From a virus (Duplodnaviria > Heunggongvirae > Uroviricota > Caudoviricetes), in the IMG/VR virus record IMGVR_UViG_2648501669_000026: a stretch of 12,061 bases of DNA. The stretch is one strand, 5' to 3'. The position numbers and the translations under genes were made by a program. Shown piece by piece: positions 1 through 12,061 of this stretch (positions within the stretch are counted from its first letter, which is position 1; each line of letters starts with the position of its first letter). The notes below the pieces were generated by a model. It was not told where the DNA came from and did no database searches. It saw only the letters and a list, made by a program, of their open reading frames with translations.

Positions 1-1041
1 ATGGCATTACCGTTAAGGGATTATTATCCAGTTACCCGCGCCGCGAATTTACTTGGCTGTGAAGTGAACGATTTGTTCCACTGGGCGAGAAGGGGGTATA
101 TAGAATTATATGCGTATATTGATTCGGCTTGTGGTGTTGTTCACATGCATGAGCTTGATTATTTTCTCCCATTTATTGATCAAGAGGTGAGGGGGTGGGT
201 TAAATCGTTGCAAGAAGAATCTTTACGGGCTGAACTGGATGATTTTGTGGATGAAAAAATCAACAGAACAATGGGCGTTTTTTGTAAGTTAAATTACCTG
301 AAAGAAGAAAGAATATACTTGTACTCTCTTTTGAACTTTCTGGCTAAAGGATGGGTTAATACGGGCTTCTGCTGGTTAAAAAATCTTAAAAATGAAGCCC
401 GGAAGAGTGTCGAAGATGCCTATTATTTCGAGGATGTATGCGCCGAACATTCTTTTAATCGTGATAGCGAATATATTGCAGAAGTGGGCGGTTTTTTTTC
501 TATTGATTCTCATAATATACTTGAAGATATTGAATTAAATGGATGTTGTATTTGTTCTGGTGAAAATTTTGAAGGTGTATATAGCGGGTTGTCTGTTTTT
601 CTTCCTCAAAGCAATAATATAAATCTAAACAAAAATAACCTGTTTTTATTCAAAGATGATTTTATCATTCTTAATGATTTCTCTTCTGAAAAAGAAGGTG
701 ATACAGGAGAGCAATTGAATAAAAAATATTTATATGGCTATGATATGGAGTCAATATATATTCAATTGAACGAGAAGAATACATTCTTTCAACCCTGCGA
801 TGAGTCGATTAGTAGACAAAATGAGCATAAAAAAGAATTAAACCCTCAGCTTGATAAAAAAACGCGAGTATCCAAAGCAGAAAGAGTATTTATACAATTG
901 GCAATAAAAGAACATTACCACGAGTTTATAGACAGTCCGGGAACCATTGCCAATATATTCACCGCCTTGTCTAAAAAGCATGAAAGCCCTTTCGATTTCG
1001 ATAAAAGCACCATAGGCAGGTGGATTAAAACCGCTCGCTAA
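1..1041 (+). CDS. Hypothetical protein; N-terminal excisionase/MerR-type helix-turn-helix fused to an AT-rich body of unknown function. May be 5'-truncated by the window edge.
   Basis: 346-codon open frame from position 1, stop TAA 1039..1041. Residues ~8-35 (YYPVTRAANLLGCEVNDLFHWARRGYIEL) match the HTH_17/excisionase pattern. GC is about 40-47% in the first ~180 nt and about 23-35% in the rest (hand counts of 60-nt blocks), against about 50% in neighbouring genes. No family recognised for the body. Confidence 0.6.
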   Translation: MALPLRDYYPVTRAANLLGCEVNDLFHWARRGYIELYAYIDSACGVVHMHELDYFLPFIDQEVRGWVKSLQEESLRAELDDFVDEKINRTMGVFCKLNYLKEERIYLYSLLNFLAKGWVNTGFCWLKNLKNEARKSVEDAYYFEDVCAEHSFNRDSEYIAEVGGFFSIDSHNILEDIELNGCCICSGENFEGVYSGLSVFLPQSNNINLNKNNLFLFKDDFIILNDFSSEKEGDTGEQLNKKYLYGYDMESIYIQLNEKNTFFQPCDESISRQNEHKKELNPQLDKKTRVSKAERVFIQLAIKEHYHEFIDSPGTIANIFTALSKKHESPFDFDKSTIGRWIKTAR

Positions 1042-1484: not shown

Positions 1485-2360
1485 ATGGAAAACACAATCA
1501 CGGTATTAACACCCGTTTTTAAAAACTGCCCGGAAATGACCACGATTGCATCGTGGCCCCGTAGTTTTGTATATCAAAAGGGACAATCTGAAGTCTCTTT
1601 GGTTATTCGTCTGATTGATATCATTGCATCAAAATACATGCACAGACACGCCGAGGAATATTGCGATATTACAGGGTATTGCCTGCCGTTAGTGCATAAA
1701 ATCAGTGATGAAGAGATGCGGGATATTGCGGAAGGTTGCGATATTGCCATTACACGCATCCGGCAAAAAATCCGCGAAGCAGAAAATAAAGTGACTGCTC
1801 AGGAAAATAAAATCAGCGAATTGCGTAACGCTCAGTTACAGCCCACGTGTGCTGATAACCCTTATGGTGATCGGTATTCAGTAAAAGACGTTATCGAGCA
1901 TGAAATGCGTCTGCTTGAAAATGAGAAACGGAATTGCGAAAAGACACGCGCTGTCTGTGAGCAGGCTATACGCCTTATTGGTACGGGGAAAAACCTTTCT
2001 CATGATGGCGGTAATGCGTGGATTTTTGCCGCTTCGTTTGACGGACTGGAGCCGGAAACAAATCGCCGTATCAATATTTATAAAGAGATTATTTCGGCTG
2101 TCAGTGCGATCGTCACTTTACGCAATGAAGAAATTAAGCACATTCCTTATTCAGTAATGGCTAAATACAACCATTTACGGCAGGAATATATTAATGATGC
2201 ATTACGTACTCTGACGAAGCATTATTACAGCAACGGCAGTGAAACCATCCGCCATGCGATGACGCTACAGGAATACACCGGAATAAGTATGCCACGAATT
2301 GAACGGGATGCGGCGACCGCTTTGCTGTCTGTACATACCGAAAAGAAAGATATTGTTTAA
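1485..2360 (+). CDS. Hypothetical 291-aa protein with a central coiled-coil; capsid-scaffold-like only by position and size
   Basis: ATG 1485 lies 5 nt after the alpA stop, with GGAG 8 nt upstream. Heptad-like charged segment IRQKIREAENKVTAQENKISELRNAQLQ. No family recognised; it does not match my recollection of P2 GpO. Confidence 0.55.
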   Translation: MENTITVLTPVFKNCPEMTTIASWPRSFVYQKGQSEVSLVIRLIDIIASKYMHRHAEEYCDITGYCLPLVHKISDEEMRDIAEGCDIAITRIRQKIREAENKVTAQENKISELRNAQLQPTCADNPYGDRYSVKDVIEHEMRLLENEKRNCEKTRAVCEQAIRLIGTGKNLSHDGGNAWIFAASFDGLEPETNRRINIYKEIISAVSAIVTLRNEEIKHIPYSVMAKYNHLRQEYINDALRTLTKHYYSNGSETIRHAMTLQEYTGISMPRIERDAATALLSVHTEKKDIV

Positions 2361-2370
2361 GGGGAAATGT

Positions 2371-3423
2371 ATGTTTTTTAATATTAATGACCTGAAAGAT
2401 AAAGCCGGAAGCGTGCTTGAAAATATCAATATTTCATCTCCAGCGGTGAACGAAAATGAAACTGACATTAATAGCGCGCTTGCAGAAAAAGATCTTTACG
2501 CACGCATCAGTGCATACACACAAAAAAATCCGTTTGTGCATTTTATTTCGCCCTCTAACTGGCTTTCCGGGCAAATAAAATACCTGTCAGTTAATCCGCA
2601 TCAGTCCGCTATTAACCTTATTGGGGATGCGCGCTTATCCACCGGACGCGCAGAGGAAGGACGCTTTAGCCGTGCCATGGATATTAAAGGCTCTCCGATT
2701 GAATGCTATGAGATGGACTCATGCGAATATCTCGACTGGATTAACTTGGTTGTGATGGCCAATGTGGCGAATGACGACAAAAACCGCGATGCACTGCTGG
2801 GGATTTTGTGTGGCTATCTGACCAGCAAAATTTATCTGGACGATCTGCGGATTGGCTTTAACGGCAAGTCAGCGGCAACCTTCACCACACCGGACACCAA
2901 CCCGAACGGCGAGGATGTTGCGCCCGGCTGGCATGAAATTGCCAGGAAGGCAAGCGAAGGACGACAGATTATCAGCGATGCCATTACGCTGGGCGCAGGT
3001 GGTGATTTTCCGGGGGTAGATGCACTGGCGCAGCATCTGATTAAAACGAAAATTGCCGCACAGTGGCAGAACGATCCACGCCTTGTGGTGATGGTGGGAT
3101 CAGAACTTGCAGCTGCCGAACGTCTGCGTCTTTTCAGCACCGCAAACGGCGCAGGAGATACCGAAGCCGCCAGCGCATGGGGAAGCACCATTGCCGGGCA
3201 TTTTGCCTTTGTGCCACCGTTTATGCCGGGTAAACGTCTGGCTGTGACCACACTCCCGAACCTGCTGATTAACATCATTGAAGGCTCTTACCGCACAGAG
3301 TTCGATATGAACAAAGACACCAAACGCCTGAACATGCGGGCATGGCGTCATCAGGGCTACGGGCTGGCGGATGTGAATCTTTACGCGGCAGTGGATGAGG
3401 GCGCGATTACGCTTAATCCGTGA
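2371..3423 (+). CDS. Putative P2 GpN-family major capsid-like protein (tentative)
   Basis: ATG 2371 with AAGGGG 5-6 nt upstream; the ORF-track start at 2299 overlaps the preceding gene and is rejected. Collinear motifs GFNG, NP-x3-DVAPGW, GAGGDFPGVDAL and DPRLVVMVGSEL match P2 GpN as I recall it (GFNG, DVAVGW, GKGGDYASLDAL, DPDLVVIVGRQL). Size 350 aa versus 357 aa for GpN. Based on memory only. Confidence 0.55.
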   Translation: MFFNINDLKDKAGSVLENINISSPAVNENETDINSALAEKDLYARISAYTQKNPFVHFISPSNWLSGQIKYLSVNPHQSAINLIGDARLSTGRAEEGRFSRAMDIKGSPIECYEMDSCEYLDWINLVVMANVANDDKNRDALLGILCGYLTSKIYLDDLRIGFNGKSAATFTTPDTNPNGEDVAPGWHEIARKASEGRQIISDAITLGAGGDFPGVDALAQHLIKTKIAAQWQNDPRLVVMVGSELAAAERLRLFSTANGAGDTEAASAWGSTIAGHFAFVPPFMPGKRLAVTTLPNLLINIIEGSYRTEFDMNKDTKRLNMRAWRHQGYGLADVNLYAAVDEGAITLNP

Positions 3424-3633: not shown

Positions 3634-3817
3634 GTTTGACAGCCTGATTGTTAGAGCGGGTAGCCGCTATATTTCCGTAATGCGGTTTTTTTGTGCCCGT
3701 AATTCCACCCTACCCCGTATTATGGCGGGGCGTAATGGGGGAGCCTTTGCGCTCGCTGGTTTCTCTAACGCCAGTCTGTCAACCCTGTTACGTCCCGCCA
3801 CCATGTTTGACAGCGTG
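3634..3817 (+). promoter_or_regulatory. Untranslated leader with a 13-bp repeat triplet, P4 seqA/seqB/seqC-like
   Basis: GTTTGACAGCCTG (3634..3646) and GTTTGACAGCGTG (3805..3817) are direct repeats, 12/13 identical. CAGTCTGTCAACC (3772..3784) is an imperfect inverted copy (11/13 pairing). A short hairpin plus T7 run sits at 3680..3700. No SD-supported ORF between 3465 and 3856. Confidence 0.3.
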
Positions 3818-3856
3818 CTGGCGAGACTCCGTAAATCAGTTAGAGGAGCCGCCAAA

Positions 3857-4030
3857 ATGGCTATATCAACACGCCCTGATTTTATCTGGCGCTTTATGCA
3901 GTGCCACGGTAAAAATATTCGCCTTCATACCGTTACCGCTGCCAGTGAGCGCGAAGCGCGCGCCATGCTTCCGGCATCCCGTCTGGTCTTTGTTGCCCGT
4001 ATCCGTGTCCGGGAGGCGTGCCATGTTTAA
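3857..4030 (+). CDS. Small 57-aa protein, candidate Icd-like (host cell division inhibitor-like) family
   Basis: ATG 3857 with GAGGAG 8 nt upstream. The segment FIWRF...VTAASEREARAMLP...LVFVARIRV resembles the Icd-like small proteins I recall from P4-type prophages. The ORF-track extension back to 3395 overlaps the upstream gene and hairpin and has no SD. Confidence 0.5.
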   Translation: MAISTRPDFIWRFMQCHGKNIRLHTVTAASEREARAMLPASRLVFVARIRVREACHV

Positions 4031-4211
4031 GCTCCTTATCACCCTGATTAACTGCCAGAACGGCGACGTTCGCCAGTTTGTTCATGCCGAGGAATACCCG
4101 ACCTGTGATGATGCGTTGCGTGCTGCCCGTCGCATGGAGTACACCCGCGCCAACAAACAGGGGAAATTAACCCACAAATGCACGGTAAACATTATGGAAA
4201 TGGAGGGGTAA
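4023..4211 (+). CDS. Hypothetical small protein (62 aa)
   Basis: ATG 4023 overlaps the upstream stop (ATGTTTAA), with GGGAGG 6 nt upstream. It is the SD-supported C-terminal part of ORF-track frame 3693..4211. Confidence 0.5.
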   Translation: MFKLLITLINCQNGDVRQFVHAEEYPTCDDALRAARRMEYTRANKQGKLTHKCTVNIMEMEG

Positions 4212-7704: not shown

Positions 7705-8706
7705 ATGTCGATCAGAAAGATGGATGATGGGCGATGGCTGCTCGATATCAGGCCACAAGGGGCGTACGGCAAACGGATACGTAAAATTTTTGTCAGGAAA
7801 GGGAGTGCAGAGGCCTTCGAACAATATATTTTACAGAATTTCCATAACAACCCATGGCTGGCTAAACCTGCTGATCGGCGGCGATTATCAGAGCTGCTTG
7901 ATACATGGTGGATGCTTGATGGCCGTAACCAGGCTTACGGCGATACCTACAGGATCCGGCTGGAGAAAGTGATTCGTGAAATGGGAGATCCGCGCGCCAG
8001 CCAGATGACGCAAAAATTTATGCTTGAGTATCGGTCAGAGAAATTACAGGCCGGCTTAATGCCATCCAGCATTAATCGTGACTTGTGCGTTCTGTCTACC
8101 ATGTTCACGGTGCTGATTGAAGCAGGGGTCTTTCACAACCCGAACCCTGTGCGCAGTATACGCAAGCTAAAAATTCAGAATACAGAGATGGCCTTTCTTT
8201 CTGATGATGAGATTGAACGGCTTCTTGAGCGACTGGAGGGGGATGCGCGTCGTGTTGCCATTCTGTGTCTTTCTACTGGTGCCCGATGGAGTGAAGCATC
8301 GGAACTACGTGGAGAGCATATCGTTGGCAACCGTGTGACGTTTTTTAACACCAAAAACGGAAAATCCCGCTCGGTTCCTGTGGCGGATTCGGTCGTGCCG
8401 CTGATTAAAACCCGTCGGACGGGGTTGTTGTATCAGGTTGATTATCTGGAGTTCCGGGAGATTCTTCAGGAGGTTAAGCCGGATTTGCCGAAGGGGCAGG
8501 CTACGCATGTTATGCGTCATACATTTGCCACACACTTTATGATGAATGGTGGGAATATCGTTACATTACAACGGATTCTTGGACATGCGACTATCCAGCA
8601 AACGATGACTTATGCGCATTTTTCTCCCGACTATCTGGCGGATGCCATGAGGTTTAACCCGATAGCTAACATGGCATTCACTGAACAAAAAGAGCCAGCA
8701 GAGTAA
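7705..8706 (+). CDS. int: Tyrosine recombinase / integrase, P2 Int-like
   Basis: 333 aa. Catalytic-domain motifs AILCLSTGARWSEA, HVMRHTFATHFM and LGHATIQQTMTYAHF; N-terminal DGRWLLDIRPQG...GKRIRK. Close to P2 Int in length and motifs as I recall it. ATG is 2 nt after the primase stop and shares the SD AAGGAGGGGG. Confidence 0.92.
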   Translation: MSIRKMDDGRWLLDIRPQGAYGKRIRKIFVRKGSAEAFEQYILQNFHNNPWLAKPADRRRLSELLDTWWMLDGRNQAYGDTYRIRLEKVIREMGDPRASQMTQKFMLEYRSEKLQAGLMPSSINRDLCVLSTMFTVLIEAGVFHNPNPVRSIRKLKIQNTEMAFLSDDEIERLLERLEGDARRVAILCLSTGARWSEASELRGEHIVGNRVTFFNTKNGKSRSVPVADSVVPLIKTRRTGLLYQVDYLEFREILQEVKPDLPKGQATHVMRHTFATHFMMNGGNIVTLQRILGHATIQQTMTYAHFSPDYLADAMRFNPIANMAFTEQKEPAE

Positions 8707-8736
8707 CCCGCAGAACGCTACATTCACAGCAAAAGA

Positions 8737-8761
8737 GGTCAGTTTTCCACTGGCCTTTTTT
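8737..8761 (+). terminator. Rho-independent terminator after int
   Basis: Stem GGTCAGT (8737..8743) / ACTGGCC (8749..8755) with one G-U pair, loop TTTCC, then six T (8756..8761). Confidence 0.7.
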
Positions 8762-8953
8762 GTTGGCCAAAGCCAACGGTAACAGCAATGCAATGGTGGC
8801 CATATTGCAGCGGTGCCGCCATCAATTTTTTTGCTCTCCCTTCCTGATTATCAGGAAAGAGTCAAATAGTGGCGAGATACATTTTAATCACAGAGAGTTA
8901 ATGAGAGTGAGACATAGTGAGTGAGTTTAATTAACATTTTAAAGGGTTGCGCT

Positions 8954-9277
8954 AAAATCCGGGGGGGGGTGCGGAAACGGGTTACAAAGGTTACAAACAG
9001 AAAAATATATTATATATCAATATATTATAATACATTTAAAAGGTTACAAACGGGTTACAACAGGGTTACATGTAACCTTTATGTAGTGGTTACTGTTGGT
9101 TACAGGTTAAATTTATAATTAATTGATAATTAATCTGTTTTTTAGAGCTGTAACCTCGTGTAACCTTCTGTAACCTCAAAAAGGTTACAAGCAATTTCAT
9201 TTAAAATCATGATGTTAATGTGTGTTTTAAGGAGCTGTAACCTTTGTAACCCGTTTCCGCACCCCCTACCGGATTTT
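8954..9277. repeat. Iteron array bounded by a long inverted repeat; putative origin of replication of the element
   Basis: 13 exact heptamers. GGTTACA on + at 8980, 8989, 9042, 9053, 9064, 9098, 9183; TGTAACC at 9071, 9149, 9159, 9169, 9236, 9245. Three are phased at exactly 10 bp (9149/9159/9169). Palindrome GGTTACATGTAACC at 9064..9077. 30-bp perfect inverted repeat 8966..8995 / 9236..9265, extending to 42 bp (8954..8995 / 9236..9277) with 2 mismatches. AT-rich core 9001..9040 (2 G/C in 40 nt). Confidence 0.6.
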
Positions 9278-9415
9278 GAGGCAGAGCCCAAAAAACACTG
9301 GTAAGACCAGAAACATAAAATTAACACAACAAAACTGAATGAAATGACTGTTACCCCCCCGTGATGACGGGTAAAATCAGGTCAGGCAATCAGCGTTTAT
9401 TCATGAGGTGCCGGA

Positions 9416-9670
9416 GTGCGCAGACAGAAAGCGCGGTGTTTTTGCTGTGGTGAGCGCGCAGTGATTGAAAAGACCGTCTGGAAAGATGATCGGTTTGCTG
9501 ACGTGTATTACCGTTGCAAGCGTCTTGAGTGCGGACATACCTGGGTAATGAATCTGACCTACTCGCACACGCTGACCCCCAGCGGACTGGAGAACGGCGT
9601 GTTGAAGCTGTTGATCGAACGAATGCGCCCGGAGGAAAAACAAATGGCGCTGGAACTACTACAGGCCTGA
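9416..9670 (+). CDS. Ogr/Delta-family zinc-finger transcriptional activator-like protein
   Basis: GTG 9416 with GAGGTG 5 nt upstream. C-x2-C, 22 residues, C-x4-C (CFCCGERA...CKRLEC), the same cysteine spacing as P2 Ogr as I recall it. 84 aa. Confidence 0.7.
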   Translation: MRRQKARCFCCGERAVIEKTVWKDDRFADVYYRCKRLECGHTWVMNLTYSHTLTPSGLENGVLKLLIERMRPEEKQMALELLQA

Positions 9671-9687: not shown

Positions 9688-9715
9688 AAACCCGCAGCTT
9701 TTACACGGCGGGTTT
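9688..9715. terminator. Hairpin downstream of the ogr-like gene, bidirectional-looking
   Basis: AAACCCGC (9688..9695), 12-nt loop, GCGGGTTT (9708..9715). The better U-tract is on the - strand (TTTTCTTTTG from 9681..9690). Confidence 0.4.
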
Positions 9716-10206
9716 GTGATGTTCATGACTGCAGATAGGGTGCCGTTCCGGCCTTTACCCTGGCAACCGATTGACGGGGAAGTTGACTTCCCCGTCGCGG
9801 TTCCTTACTGTGTAGACTTACATTGTAAGAATGCCGCAATTTCCGTTCCTGCAAACCTGAATCGCAACTCACAAGGTGATGTGTGGAGGATCCAGATTAT
9901 CGCTACTGCGGTTAAACACAGTAGCAGGGTTTTTAACGGAATTTGCGTCATAGCGCTTGCTCCTTTGGTGGAGAGGCGCTAACCTTCTACTTGTCAAGGT
10001 ACGAAGTGTTAGGGCCTCGGGTTAACATTAAAGTTGACTCGGGGCCTTTCCACATCTGGCCTTCGGGTATTCCCTCCGACCATCAGCCGAAAGGCACCCG
10101 CAGCGATTCTAGCCTGGTTGCCATACCCGCATCAATCACCCGCCACATCGCTTTATCGCTCGCAAATCAGCAACCTGACGCTACTTTACGTCGCTCTGTC
10201 CGGCAT

Positions 10207-10618
10207 TTTACGTCACCTCATCGCACCGCGTTTTATTCGTCCCTTCTGACCGTTCTGCCTCTCCCTGTTGTGAAGTTTTTTTCAGTTTCATTTTGTTCGC
10301 CGTATGCCGTCAGGGCGCGTCACGTCTGGATTTTCGCGAAATGCTGCCGGGCGTGAAATTCTGCCACCGGGCCAAACAGCCTCACGTAAAGTATGAAAAA
10401 GCCTTAAATATCATGAAAGTAGTCACGCGCAGCACAAAAAAAGAACTGAAAACCGGGAAGAAAAATTGCAAAAAATTTCACTGAATGAAATTTTGCTTTT
10501 GCACGAATCCCCAGAACTGACGCACCCTGCCAGCTATTTTTTCACACCAGAAAACTGAAAAAGTGTTTCGACACGAAACCCGCGGGTTGGAGGGGGTAGC
10601 GCGGTTTACGTCACCTCA
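10207..10618. repeat. 14-bp exact direct repeat TTTACGTCACCTCA (two copies) with several shorter related copies
   Basis: Exact copies at 10207..10220 and 10605..10618, 398 bp apart. Related TTTACG(T/C)(C/G) cores at 10185..10193, 10622..10632, 10636..10644 and 10740..10748; inverted copy at 10383..10390. Confidence 0.6.
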
Positions 10619-10690
10619 CGTTTTACGTCACGCCGTTTACGCGGCGTATGCATACAGCGCCAGAACGGCACACAGAAAGCTGATTCGGGG

Positions 10691-10726
10691 AGAAAATACG
10701 AAAACGCACGGCCTGAACCGTGCGTT
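10691..10726 (-). terminator. Rho-independent terminator for the 169-aa - strand gene
   Basis: 9-bp stem AACGCACGG (10703..10711) / CCGTGCGTT (10718..10726), 6-nt loop, then a U-rich tract on the - strand (complement of 10691..10702), 42 nt past the stop. Confidence 0.45.
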
Positions 10727-10767
10727 AATCAGGGCGCGTTTTACGCGGTTTTATGCGGGGCGTTTAT

Positions 10768-11277
10768 TCAGACCAGACCGTAGTCATTTGCGGTCGATTC
10801 ATCGTTGCTGGCAAAGCTGGCAGCCGCCTGAGTCATGGCTGATTTTAGCGGCGATGCTTCTGCTTCAAGCAATGTCCTGAGCTGGCTTAGTGGAATGCGC
10901 TGGCTGAACTCTGCCAGCCCTTCGCTAAAGCTAAATTGCTTTGGTGACTCATCACCACACGCAATCCATGCGAAGTCCTCAGCATCACCACGCTGCTTTA
11001 ACTCAAAGAAGCACGGGAAGTCAAACCTCTGGCAGAAGCGTTTAGCTCCGTCGATGGTGGAGAAGTAAGCCGCTTCCAGTCCGCCCTGTTCGTCGGGCAT
11101 GGCGACCACATACCTTACAGGCGCGCGCTCTTCCAGTTCCTGTGCAATTCCGGCGCAGAACGTCGGCGTATAGCCGCTGTTCGCAATCCTGTTCATCGCT
11201 CCCCGCCAGCCGAATGGGTTGTTTTCTGGTGTGCCGGCTCTGGTGTCGGTGCCTGTGAATATAGTTTTATTGCTCAT
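10768..11277 (-). CDS. Hypothetical 169-aa protein, monocistronic, divergent from hpt
   Basis: ATG at 11277..11275 with AGGA about 10 nt upstream. The only long ORF in an otherwise ORF-poor region; protein-like composition. No family recognised. It is not Gcd, which is the upstream neighbour of hpt in E. coli K-12. Confidence 0.6.
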   Translation of the reverse strand: MSNKTIFTGTDTRAGTPENNPFGWRGAMNRIANSGYTPTFCAGIAQELEERAPVRYVVAMPDEQGGLEAAYFSTIDGAKRFCQRFDFPCFFELKQRGDAEDFAWIACGDESPKQFSFSEGLAEFSQRIPLSQLRTLLEAEASPLKSAMTQAAASFASNDESTANDYGLV

Positions 11278-11524
11278 CTTTGTTTAATCCTGTTGATTGG
11301 TTGTCGACGTTGCGACCTGGCTGAATCATAACAGTGAGTAGAGCGGGCGCAAGTTGGTGTGAGGTGACACATAAGGTACAATTTGCGGCCTTAAAGTGTT
11401 CTCATGTGTTCTGGTGTTGTCTGCCTGCGATATTGTTTTGTGTATCAATTGGTGTATCAATATCGATATTTGCAGAGAATTAAAACGAAATTAAATTCAC
11501 TGAAATCAATGTGATAGGTTATTG

Positions 11525-12061
11525 ATGAAACATTATGTAGAAGTAATGATCCCCGAAGCGGAGATTAAAGCGCGTATCGCCGAACTGGGTCGTCAGATTA
11601 CTGAGCGTTACAAAGACAGCGGCAGCGATATGGTGCTGGTGGGTCTGCTGCGTGGCTCATTTATGTTTATGGCGGACCTGTGCCGTGAAGTTCAGGTATC
11701 TCATGAAGTCGACTTTATGACCGCCTCCAGCTACGGTAGCGGCATGTCCACCACCCGTGATGTGAAAATCCTCAAAGATCTGGATGAAGATATCCGTGGC
11801 AAGGACGTGCTGATTGTTGAAGATATCATCGACTCGGGGAATACACTGTCGAAAGTGCGTGAGATCTTAAGCCTGCGCGAACCGAAGTCGCTGGCGATTT
11901 GTACGCTGCTGGATAAACCGTCCCGTCGTGAAGTGAACGTCCCGGTAGAATTTATCGGTTTCTCGATCCCGGATGAGTTTGTGGTGGGTTACGGCATTGA
12001 TTACGCACAGCGTTACCGTCATCTGCCGTATATCGGCAAAGTGATTCTGCTGGACGAGTAA
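11525..12061 (+). CDS. hpt: Hypoxanthine phosphoribosyltransferase
   Basis: The protein [52 protein letters not shown]...[17 protein letters not shown]...GKVILLDE is near-identical to E. coli Hpt as I recall it, including the PRTase motif [16 protein letters not shown] 11525; the ORF-track start at 11522 is TTG. Stop at the window end. Confidence 0.95.

Follow-up and report, generated by a model that had tools for sequence, protein, structure and literature searches.

An Ogr/Delta-family gene on a satellite-type mobile island probably encodes a trans-activator of the late genes of a non-P2 peduovirus helper

Introduction

P2 Ogr and P4 Delta are zinc-finger activators of P2-type late promoters, and for a satellite to encode a late activator of its own is the classic P4 strategy. 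What, then, should be made of a short ORF with paired cysteines that stands behind an integrase gene and a repeat array in a stretch of viral DNA? The stretch in question is 12,061 nt long (Caudoviricetes; IMG/VR record IMGVR_UViG_2648501669_000026), and we refer to the whole of it as the window. A preliminary description, made from the sequence alone, had read the ORF as an Ogr/Delta-type activator with which the island could probably activate the late genes of a helper or its own structural module. We asked whether the ORF is a real gene of this family, to which element it belongs, where its closest relatives are found, and whose promoters its product would be expected to serve.

Results

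The 84-aa ORF is an Ogr/Delta-family gene

A program-made ORF list gives the ORF at 9416..9670 on the plus strand as 84 aa plus stop, with a GTG start. The encoded protein, MRRQKARCFCCGERAVIEKTVWKDDRFADVYYRCKRLECGHTWVMNLTYSHTLTPSGLENGVLKLLIERMRPEEKQMALELLQA, has cysteines at C8, C11, C34 and C39, that is, C-x2-C, 22 residues and C-x4-C. The length, GTG start, good Shine-Dalgarno sequence and cysteine spacing reported in the preliminary description are all confirmed by the sequence and the ORF list. The gene and its parts are as follows.

9416..9670, plus strand: ogr gene, Ogr/Delta family (ORF list, PF04606, PHROG 603, RefSeq names, pN/pS)
9434..9574, plus strand: zinc-finger domain, aa 7-53, with Cys codons at 9437, 9446, 9515 and 9530 (Pfam, invariant Cys, AlphaFold2)
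9578..9667, plus strand: C-terminal extension, aa 55-84, clade-specific, with two predicted helices (alignment, AlphaFold2)

The preliminary description had named an HMM search against the Ogr/Delta family as the check on its reading, and that search was positive: PF04606 (Ogr_Delta) matched with 41.8 bits (E=1e-10), above its curated gathering cut-off (GA) of 26.3 bits, with model positions 1-47 of 47 aligned to aa 7-53. The ORF also matched PHROG 603, "transcriptional regulator" (E=1e-26), and RefSeq gives its E. coli orthologues the name "ogr/Delta-like zinc finger family protein"; an NCBIfam search with the protein returned no model match. All four cysteines are invariant in the 13 homologues aligned (13/13), and they align column by column with those of P2 Ogr and of the first half of P4 Delta. 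The ogr copies of the window and of E. coli 52F4 differ at 8 synonymous and 0 non-synonymous positions. The PF04606 and PHROG 603 matches and these synonymous-only differences show that no chance frame is involved and that this is a real Ogr/Delta-family gene on a mobile island. The likeness to P2 Ogr and P4 Delta drawn earlier thus stands at the level of the family, but identity to either protein is only 21-23%.

An AlphaFold2 model of the protein, built from 12 close homologues and carrying no metal, has a mean pLDDT of 72.5. In it, aa 14-50 form a three-stranded sheet (block-mean pLDDT 76-89), the linker at aa 51-60 is poorly defined, and there are C-terminal helices at 56-68 and 72-83 with moderate pLDDT. 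No relatives with solved structures were found by sequence, and a PDB fold search with the model gave no match with E below 0.3 (best E=0.37). The model is consistent with a small zinc-ribbon-like domain followed by a clade-specific helical tail.

ogr lies within a mobile island inserted at hpt

We next asked to which element the gene belongs. The window covers most of a ~13-kb mobile island. Its left part contains a 346-aa ORF, alpA (a match to Pfam Phage_AlpA), a 291-aa ORF, a P2-family capsid gene, a C4 RNA with an Icd-like ORF, and small ORFs. The middle holds a Toprim primase of 895 aa, a P2-Int-like integrase of 333 aa, a terminator hairpin, iterons and ogr, and the right part continues with a second hairpin, convergent hok with a sok-like RNA, a featureless stretch of ~670 bp, a minus-strand ORF of 169 aa, and hpt. 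In E. coli relatives, an end integrase (399 aa), which falls outside the window, lies at the left end of the island beside gcd; ogr is ~2 kb inside the right end.

Since the first codons of hpt are duplicated at the left end of the island, the insertion took place in the 5' end of that gene. In E. coli 52F4, the hpt start ATGAAACATACTGTAGAAGTAATG and the repeat GTGTATCAAT-NN-GTGTATCAATATCG are each present at the two ends of the island; the stretches concerned are 11278-11560 of the window, and 1500-1685 and 14300-14460 of the full island (L001). The island body, alpA...primase-int2-ogr-hok-hyp169, is found both at gcd/hpt and at tRNA-Arg (yfdC/dsdC), with different end integrases. Given these boundaries and the two integration sites, ogr belongs to the mobile element and not to a neighbouring prophage; the idea that it is part of an adjacent degraded prophage is ruled out on the same grounds.

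The features that surround ogr are the following.

7705..8706, plus strand: second, internal integrase, P2-Int-like (Pfam Int_N and Phage_integrase; 50% identical to the phage SI7 integrase)
8728..8764, plus strand: terminator hairpin after the second integrase (-23.9 kcal/mol, z = -4.7, 0/200 shuffles as stable)
8980..9251, no strand assigned: iteron array, probable origin of replication, with the primase-integrase operon on one side and ogr on the other (13 GGTTACA)
9354..9360, plus strand: poly-C tract just 5' of the -10-like element (C7 or C8 in five islands)
9369..9378, plus strand: conserved GGGTAAAATC with -10-like TAAAAT at 9372-9377, candidate ogr promoter element (alignment)
9405..9410, plus strand: Shine-Dalgarno GAGGTG, with 7 nt from GAGG to the GTG start (read from sequence)
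9688..9715, no strand assigned: hairpin in the gap where ogr and hok converge, likely serving as a two-way terminator (fold, terminator scan)

The gene had been placed after int and the ori array. As a position this is right, since ogr is downstream of both 7705-8706 and the iterons, but the "int" is the second, internal integrase. This integrase gene starts 3 nt after the primase stop. Its product is 56% identical between the window and 52F4, compared with 90% for the primase and 100% for Ogr, and it looks like a swapped cassette. The iteron array contains GGTTACA in 13 copies in both orientations at 8980-9251, where 1.1 would be expected, and 42-nt inverted arms (8954-8995 and 9236-9277; 95% complementary) surround an AT-rich core. 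By megablast, 298 of the 5426 complete E. coli genomes searched contain a match to the iteron stretch.

Several other parts of the island were characterized. The 346-aa ORF (1-1041, plus strand) has no family and is 24% identical to the ORF at the same position in otherwise ~90% identical islands, which would make it another mosaic joint. Between alpA and the capsid gene, the 291-aa ORF (1485-2360, plus strand) has no family match; as a candidate P2-type scaffold it was rejected, for lack of similarity to the SI7 scaffold. The P2-family major capsid homologue (2371-3423, plus strand) scores 150.8 bits in Pfam and is 45% identical to the capsid protein of the helper-type prophages described below. 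A C4 antisense RNA at 3718-3805 on the plus strand (Rfam RF01695, 72.8 bits against a GA of 45) and the ORF at 3693-4211 on the same strand, whose relatives in related islands RefSeq names "host cell division inhibitor Icd-like", form a P1/P4-type RNA immunity module within the island. To the right of ogr, a Hok/Gef toxin gene (9805-9951, minus strand; Pfam 35.4 bits) is convergent with it, and a sok-like RNA match follows at 9946-10099 on the minus strand, with 42.7 bits, below the Rfam gathering score of 59, and E=1.3e-7 in a local search. No ORF, RNA family or repeat could be assigned to the ~670 bp at window positions 10100-10767, and the conserved 169-aa ORF (10768-11277, minus strand) has no family in Pfam, NCBIfam or PHROGs. 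The window contains no helper-type cos-like sequence, and no cos or pac site of the island itself was located in it.

ogr forms its own small transcription unit

The strong terminator 3' of the second integrase, which has a U run in its 3' arm, makes ogr a separate transcription unit. A consensus scan upstream of the island gene found no canonical sigma-70 promoter and no -35. When the upstream regions of island and prophage copies were aligned (six sequences), GGGT-AAAT was invariant, with one Edwardsiella copy reading GGGTGAAAT. Similarity between island and prophage DNA starts at the shared GGGTAAAAT, ~40 nt 5' of the start codon; further upstream the sequences are unrelated. Among the five islands compared, the length of the poly-C tract (C7/C8) differs inside each flank subtype, which could reflect slipped-strand variation touching expression or homopolymer sequencing error.

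The GTG start had been called unusual, and in one respect it is: the three prophage start regions that we read (E. albertii L004, E. coli L015 and Edwardsiella L005) all use ATG. Within the islands it is the rule, the SD-like purine run and GTG being retained in 5/5 copies (window, 52F4, A36, STEC316 and ETEC1716), and this conserved GTG start suggests that the level of Ogr translation is probably low. At the other end of the gene, the hairpin at 9688..9715 has an 8-bp stem (AAACCCGC/GCGGGTTT) with a folding energy no better than that of shuffles (z -0.39); the terminator scan finds a T run after its minus-strand version.

The slot right of the origin varies among islands

In a variant island from STEC388 (L002), the sequence right of the origin is replaced. 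There we found a different, 60-aa Ogr_Delta gene (43.8 bits), followed by a small divergent ORF, an ORF without assignment and a 423-aa P2-family capsid gene; this island has no capsid gene behind alpA. Because both the window and the STEC388 island carry an Ogr/Delta gene here, such a gene appears to be a recurrent occupant of the slot, with the type changing. At 12260-13370 of the STEC388 locus a CGTAATACG-type motif recurs several times, and upstream of the capsid module two of its copies together make an inverted repeat of 8 bp. The motif may be an operator, either for the STEC388 Ogr_Delta protein or for the small divergent ORF.

Island Ogr is most similar to the activators of a prophage lineage distinct from P2

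We next wondered where relatives of island Ogr are found. The protein is 96% identical to the Ogr of a prophage in E. coli ETEC1716, with three residues different and synonymous-only changes in 24 codons. Identity is 90% to the E. albertii prophage Ogr, 80% to that of Plesiomonas, ~77% to those of Edwardsiella ictaluri and E. anguillarum, and 77% to that of Yersinia enterocolitica. The closest phage-borne relatives belong to Peduoviridae other than P2, namely Salmonella phages SI7, SW3 and SW5 (52%), Cronobacter phage ESSI-2 (47%) and a Yersinia phage (45%); genome-borne relatives are few. Every homologue examined outside the islands belongs to a P2-like prophage or phage, where it is encoded downstream of portal, in most cases directly; the prophages share a layout in which scaffold-capsid-terS... 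diverges from terL-portal-ogr. In the Yersinia prophage, three small genes lie between portal and the ogr homologue.

Judged by these identities and gene contexts, the island Ogr is an orthologue of the late activator from a specific non-P2 peduovirus lineage. The helper of the island is therefore probably not P2 itself, as Ogr is orthologous (90-96%) to proteins of a different lineage. In the helper-type prophages, ParM/StbA-type partition genes come right after ogr (L015, 21428-23379; L014, 9074-10386), a hint that this lineage may also persist as a plasmid.

Does the similarity simply reflect very recent transfer? Island and Escherichia prophage ogr show 22-27 synonymous-only codon differences, with pS ~0.5 and pN/pS ~0.1 (about 0.12). 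The few amino acid substitutions between island and prophage copies all fall in the zinc-finger half; over the C-terminal 30 aa, every such comparison shows full identity (30/30) despite 9-13 synonymous codon changes. With a high pS and a low pN/pS, the similarity must be held by selection and is not the trace of very recent transfer. Among the five island copies named above, pN/pS is 0-0.2 for all pairs but one; the exception, A36 vs ETEC1716, has 0.57, on only 3 differences.

Helper-type prophages co-occur with the island

If prophages of this lineage are the helpers, they might be expected in the genomes that carry the island. A megablast search of 5426 complete E. coli genomes found the E. 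albertii prophage's portal-ogr segment in 43 of them, and an island with the ogr type of the window in nine. A helper-type prophage occurs in four of the nine island carriers (A36, STEC313, STEC316 and ETEC1716) and is missing from the other five. The hypergeometric P is 4e-7, or 1e-7 after three clonal isolates are collapsed; the nine strains are partly non-independent, several being of shared source or near-identical and three mutton isolates being clonal. Despite this non-independence, the enrichment is large.

A candidate target dyad is present in the prophages, and the island lacks intergenic copies

If island Ogr is an activator, where would it bind? Between scaffold and terL, the prophages of Escherichia, Edwardsiella and Plesiomonas each contain one perfect TTCGG-N14-CCGAA dyad within otherwise unrelated flanks. 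The E. albertii dyad reads TTTCGGATAT-GCGTAT-ATATCCGAAA, and that of E. coli ETEC1716 is identical; the Edwardsiella dyad is TTTCGGCTATGGCGGGGTATCCGAAA and the Plesiomonas dyad ATTCGGCTATATGTGTATATCCGAAT. In the 41-kb ETEC1716 locus, the scaffold/terL dyad is the only zero-mismatch match, and nearly all late genes of this prophage lie in two divergent operons. In the P2 annotation, the divergent promoters pP and pO flank one activator-binding site, whose position is equivalent to that of the prophage dyad. From its position and conservation, TTCGG-N14-CCGAA is a likely candidate for the binding site of the island Ogr clade. The pattern was not found in the Yersinia prophage (Ogr 77%) or phage SI7 (Ogr 52%), and the prophage scaffold/terL regions contain no TGT-N12-ACA.

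There are two sets of promoters that island Ogr could serve. First, it could act on the late operons of the helper. Second, it could mainly or additionally activate genes of the island, such as alpA-orf291-capsid, C4/icd-primase, or ogr itself from its own promoter. The second possibility has a precedent in P4, where Delta acts on Psid and PLL (PMC8628076), both of which carry perfect TGT-N12-ACA sites, and it would suit the STEC388 island, where the different Ogr_Delta gene is directly upstream of the capsid module.

Across the window and the full island L001, helper-type dyads with <=2 mismatches and a spacing of 12-16 were found only inside genes, leaving the intergenic regions of both without one. 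When up to 3 mismatches were allowed, TTTCGG-N14-CCGAAA was about as frequent in the island as expected by chance. In the window, TTCGG-N13-15-CCGAA with <=1 mismatch does not occur, and a short-word BLAST with the helper late-promoter regions found no significant local similarity; these negatives are weak, as TTCGG-N14-CCGAA is itself a candidate for the Ogr recognition sequence. For the P2-type pattern, a strict TGT-N12-ACA search of the window found one site, at 1568 inside an ORF, against 2.65 expected, and with one mismatch allowed all intergenic regions together gave 10 matches against 11.9 expected, none of them upstream of alpA/capsid or C4/icd; this negative is likewise weak, because the strict pattern misses P2's own annotated sites.

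The preliminary description had seen no TGT-N12-ACA dyad upstream of the alpA/capsid operon by eye, an observation that is borne out even with one mismatch. Its suggestion that the protein activates the island's own structural module finds no support, as the capsid operon has no dyad of either type. With no sites in the island, the evidence favours action on the helper over action on the island capsid operon, and we consider it unlikely that island genes are the main or an additional target.

Discussion

We consider it probable that island Ogr is a functional trans-activator of helper late genes, equivalent to the helper's own. In this proposal, the island would express Ogr from its own small transcription unit, with its GTG start and -10-like GGGTAAAAT. 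The protein would then bind the single TTCGG-N14-CCGAA dyad between the divergent late operons of the helper, scaffold-capsid-terS-tail on one side and terL-portal-ogr on the other. Once bound, it would recruit RNA polymerase and so turn on the virion and lysis genes of the helper in trans, much as P4 Delta does on P2. We infer the DNA target, the activation, its timing and the benefit to the island from sequence. The earlier suggestion that the island can activate helper late genes is thus supported as an inference, now with a likely helper lineage attached to it, although that helper is probably not P2.

Could the gene work against the helper instead? As an interference or defence device, a mistimed or excess activator, or a competitor for sites, would disturb the helper's late programme. 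Such a role would suit the features private to the island copies (GTG in 5/5, a replaced upstream region, and substitutions in the zinc-finger half), the neighbours of the gene (a hok/sok toxin module and an ORF without family), and the variability among islands of the slot right of the origin. However, the 96% identity to helper Ogr, with the C-terminal half unchanged, fits equivalence rather than a dominant-negative form, and no defence-system assignment was obtained; we regard this role as improbable. That ogr is a passive P2-like prophage remnant, beside the island or dragged into it and without a role, is very improbable: ogr and the adjacent integrase are indeed closest to P2-like phage genes, but purifying selection among island copies is strong, islands at two chromosomal sites alike keep the gene with its GTG start, no other prophage genes flank ogr, and variant islands hold a different Ogr_Delta gene in the same slot.

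The exchange of Ogr/Delta types right of the origin invites a broader and more tentative thought. This slot may possibly be a swappable, helper-matching cassette, in which the activator clade of the window would recognize TTCGG-N14-CCGAA, perhaps via its C-terminal helices. Should that be true, the helper range of a satellite would be set by the activator cassette (and the capsid cassette) that it holds. We know of no description of TTCGG-N14-CCGAA specificity for the Ogr family.

The gain is incremental, because the gene family and the general strategy were already known. What is new is that the host element is not a P4 relative and that its activator is a near-copy of a non-P2 peduovirus Ogr. 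Also new are the stand-alone position of ogr beside the origin, its conserved GTG, and a presumed target dyad unlike the P2 type. The island thus offers the case of a satellite with a near-copy of its presumed helper's late activator, kept by selection, where P4 Delta is <40% identical to P2-like proteins. It also offers a handle on helper specificity for the poorly studied gcd/hpt and tRNA-Arg island family, whose origin region is present in ~300 of 5426 genomes, and a candidate new recognition dyad for one branch of the Ogr family.

Comparison with known systems

The nearest counterparts of island Ogr are the Ogr proteins of prophages of the terL-portal-ogr type (L004, L015, Edwardsiella and Plesiomonas; more distantly, those of SI7 of Irrigatiovirus and of ESSI-2), with which it shares its length, cysteines and C-terminal extension. 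GGGTAAAAT upstream of the gene is common to the island copy and to the Escherichia and Edwardsiella prophage copies. Island ogr differs from them in having no portal neighbour and in standing alone between the iteron origin and hok/sok. To our knowledge, no Ogr of this prophage type has been tested experimentally.

P2 Ogr (72 aa) resembles island Ogr as a single-domain PF04606 protein with the same C-x2-C-x22-C-x4-C spacing, and P2 ogr, too, stands alone and is served by a promoter and a terminator of its own. The two proteins are 21% identical, and P2 Ogr is without the helical C-terminal extension. Their presumed sites differ as well: those of P2 are imperfect dyads of the TGT-N12-ACA type at four late promoters, whereas the prophages considered here have a single TTCGG-N14-CCGAA dyad.

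With P4 the island shares the principle of a satellite that encodes its own Ogr-family activator, the trans-activation of helper late genes being presumed (PMC8628076), and it also shares a C4-type RNA of the P4 immunity kind. The gene is encoded by a satellite-type island known at two att sites. P4 Delta and P2 Ogr each activate the late genes of both P2 and P4, and Delta proteins are <40% identical to those of P2-like phages (PMC8628076). The marks of the Delta subtype, a tandem domain of ~166 aa and a location between sid and psu, are both absent from the island: P4 Delta is a 166-aa protein with two domains encoded in a sid-delta-psu operon, whereas island Ogr has 84 aa and one domain and is encoded after the primase and origin. 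Island Ogr is 23% identical to the first half of P4 Delta only, and its C-terminal extension has no Delta counterpart. Searches by tblastn with P4 sid, psu and epsilon found no match in the window or the full island L001, and there was no BLAST-level match to delta. For the remaining genes, identity to P4 is 30% for alpA, 21% for an alpha-like stretch (E=0.003) and 22% for the end integrase of L001. The core of P4-like satellites consists of int, psu, delta and sid together with alpA, epsilon and alpha (PMC8628076); of this core in its conserved order, the island has only alpA, a weak alpha, an integrase and an Ogr/Delta gene, and their order differs.

Our literature searches on islands of this type, and on PICI-like satellites that carry an Ogr gene, returned only general papers on P4-like satellites and PICIs. 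Most reference Gram-negative PICIs have a major capsid gene and an ori downstream of pri (PMC10111431), and the island resembles them in having an end integrase, alpA, a capsid homologue and a primase, with the origin downstream of the last. The reference PICIs in that study relate to lambda-like helpers (PMC10111431). The island differs from them in that its capsid gene is of the P2 family and that it has a C4 RNA/Icd module, an Ogr-family gene and a second integrase.
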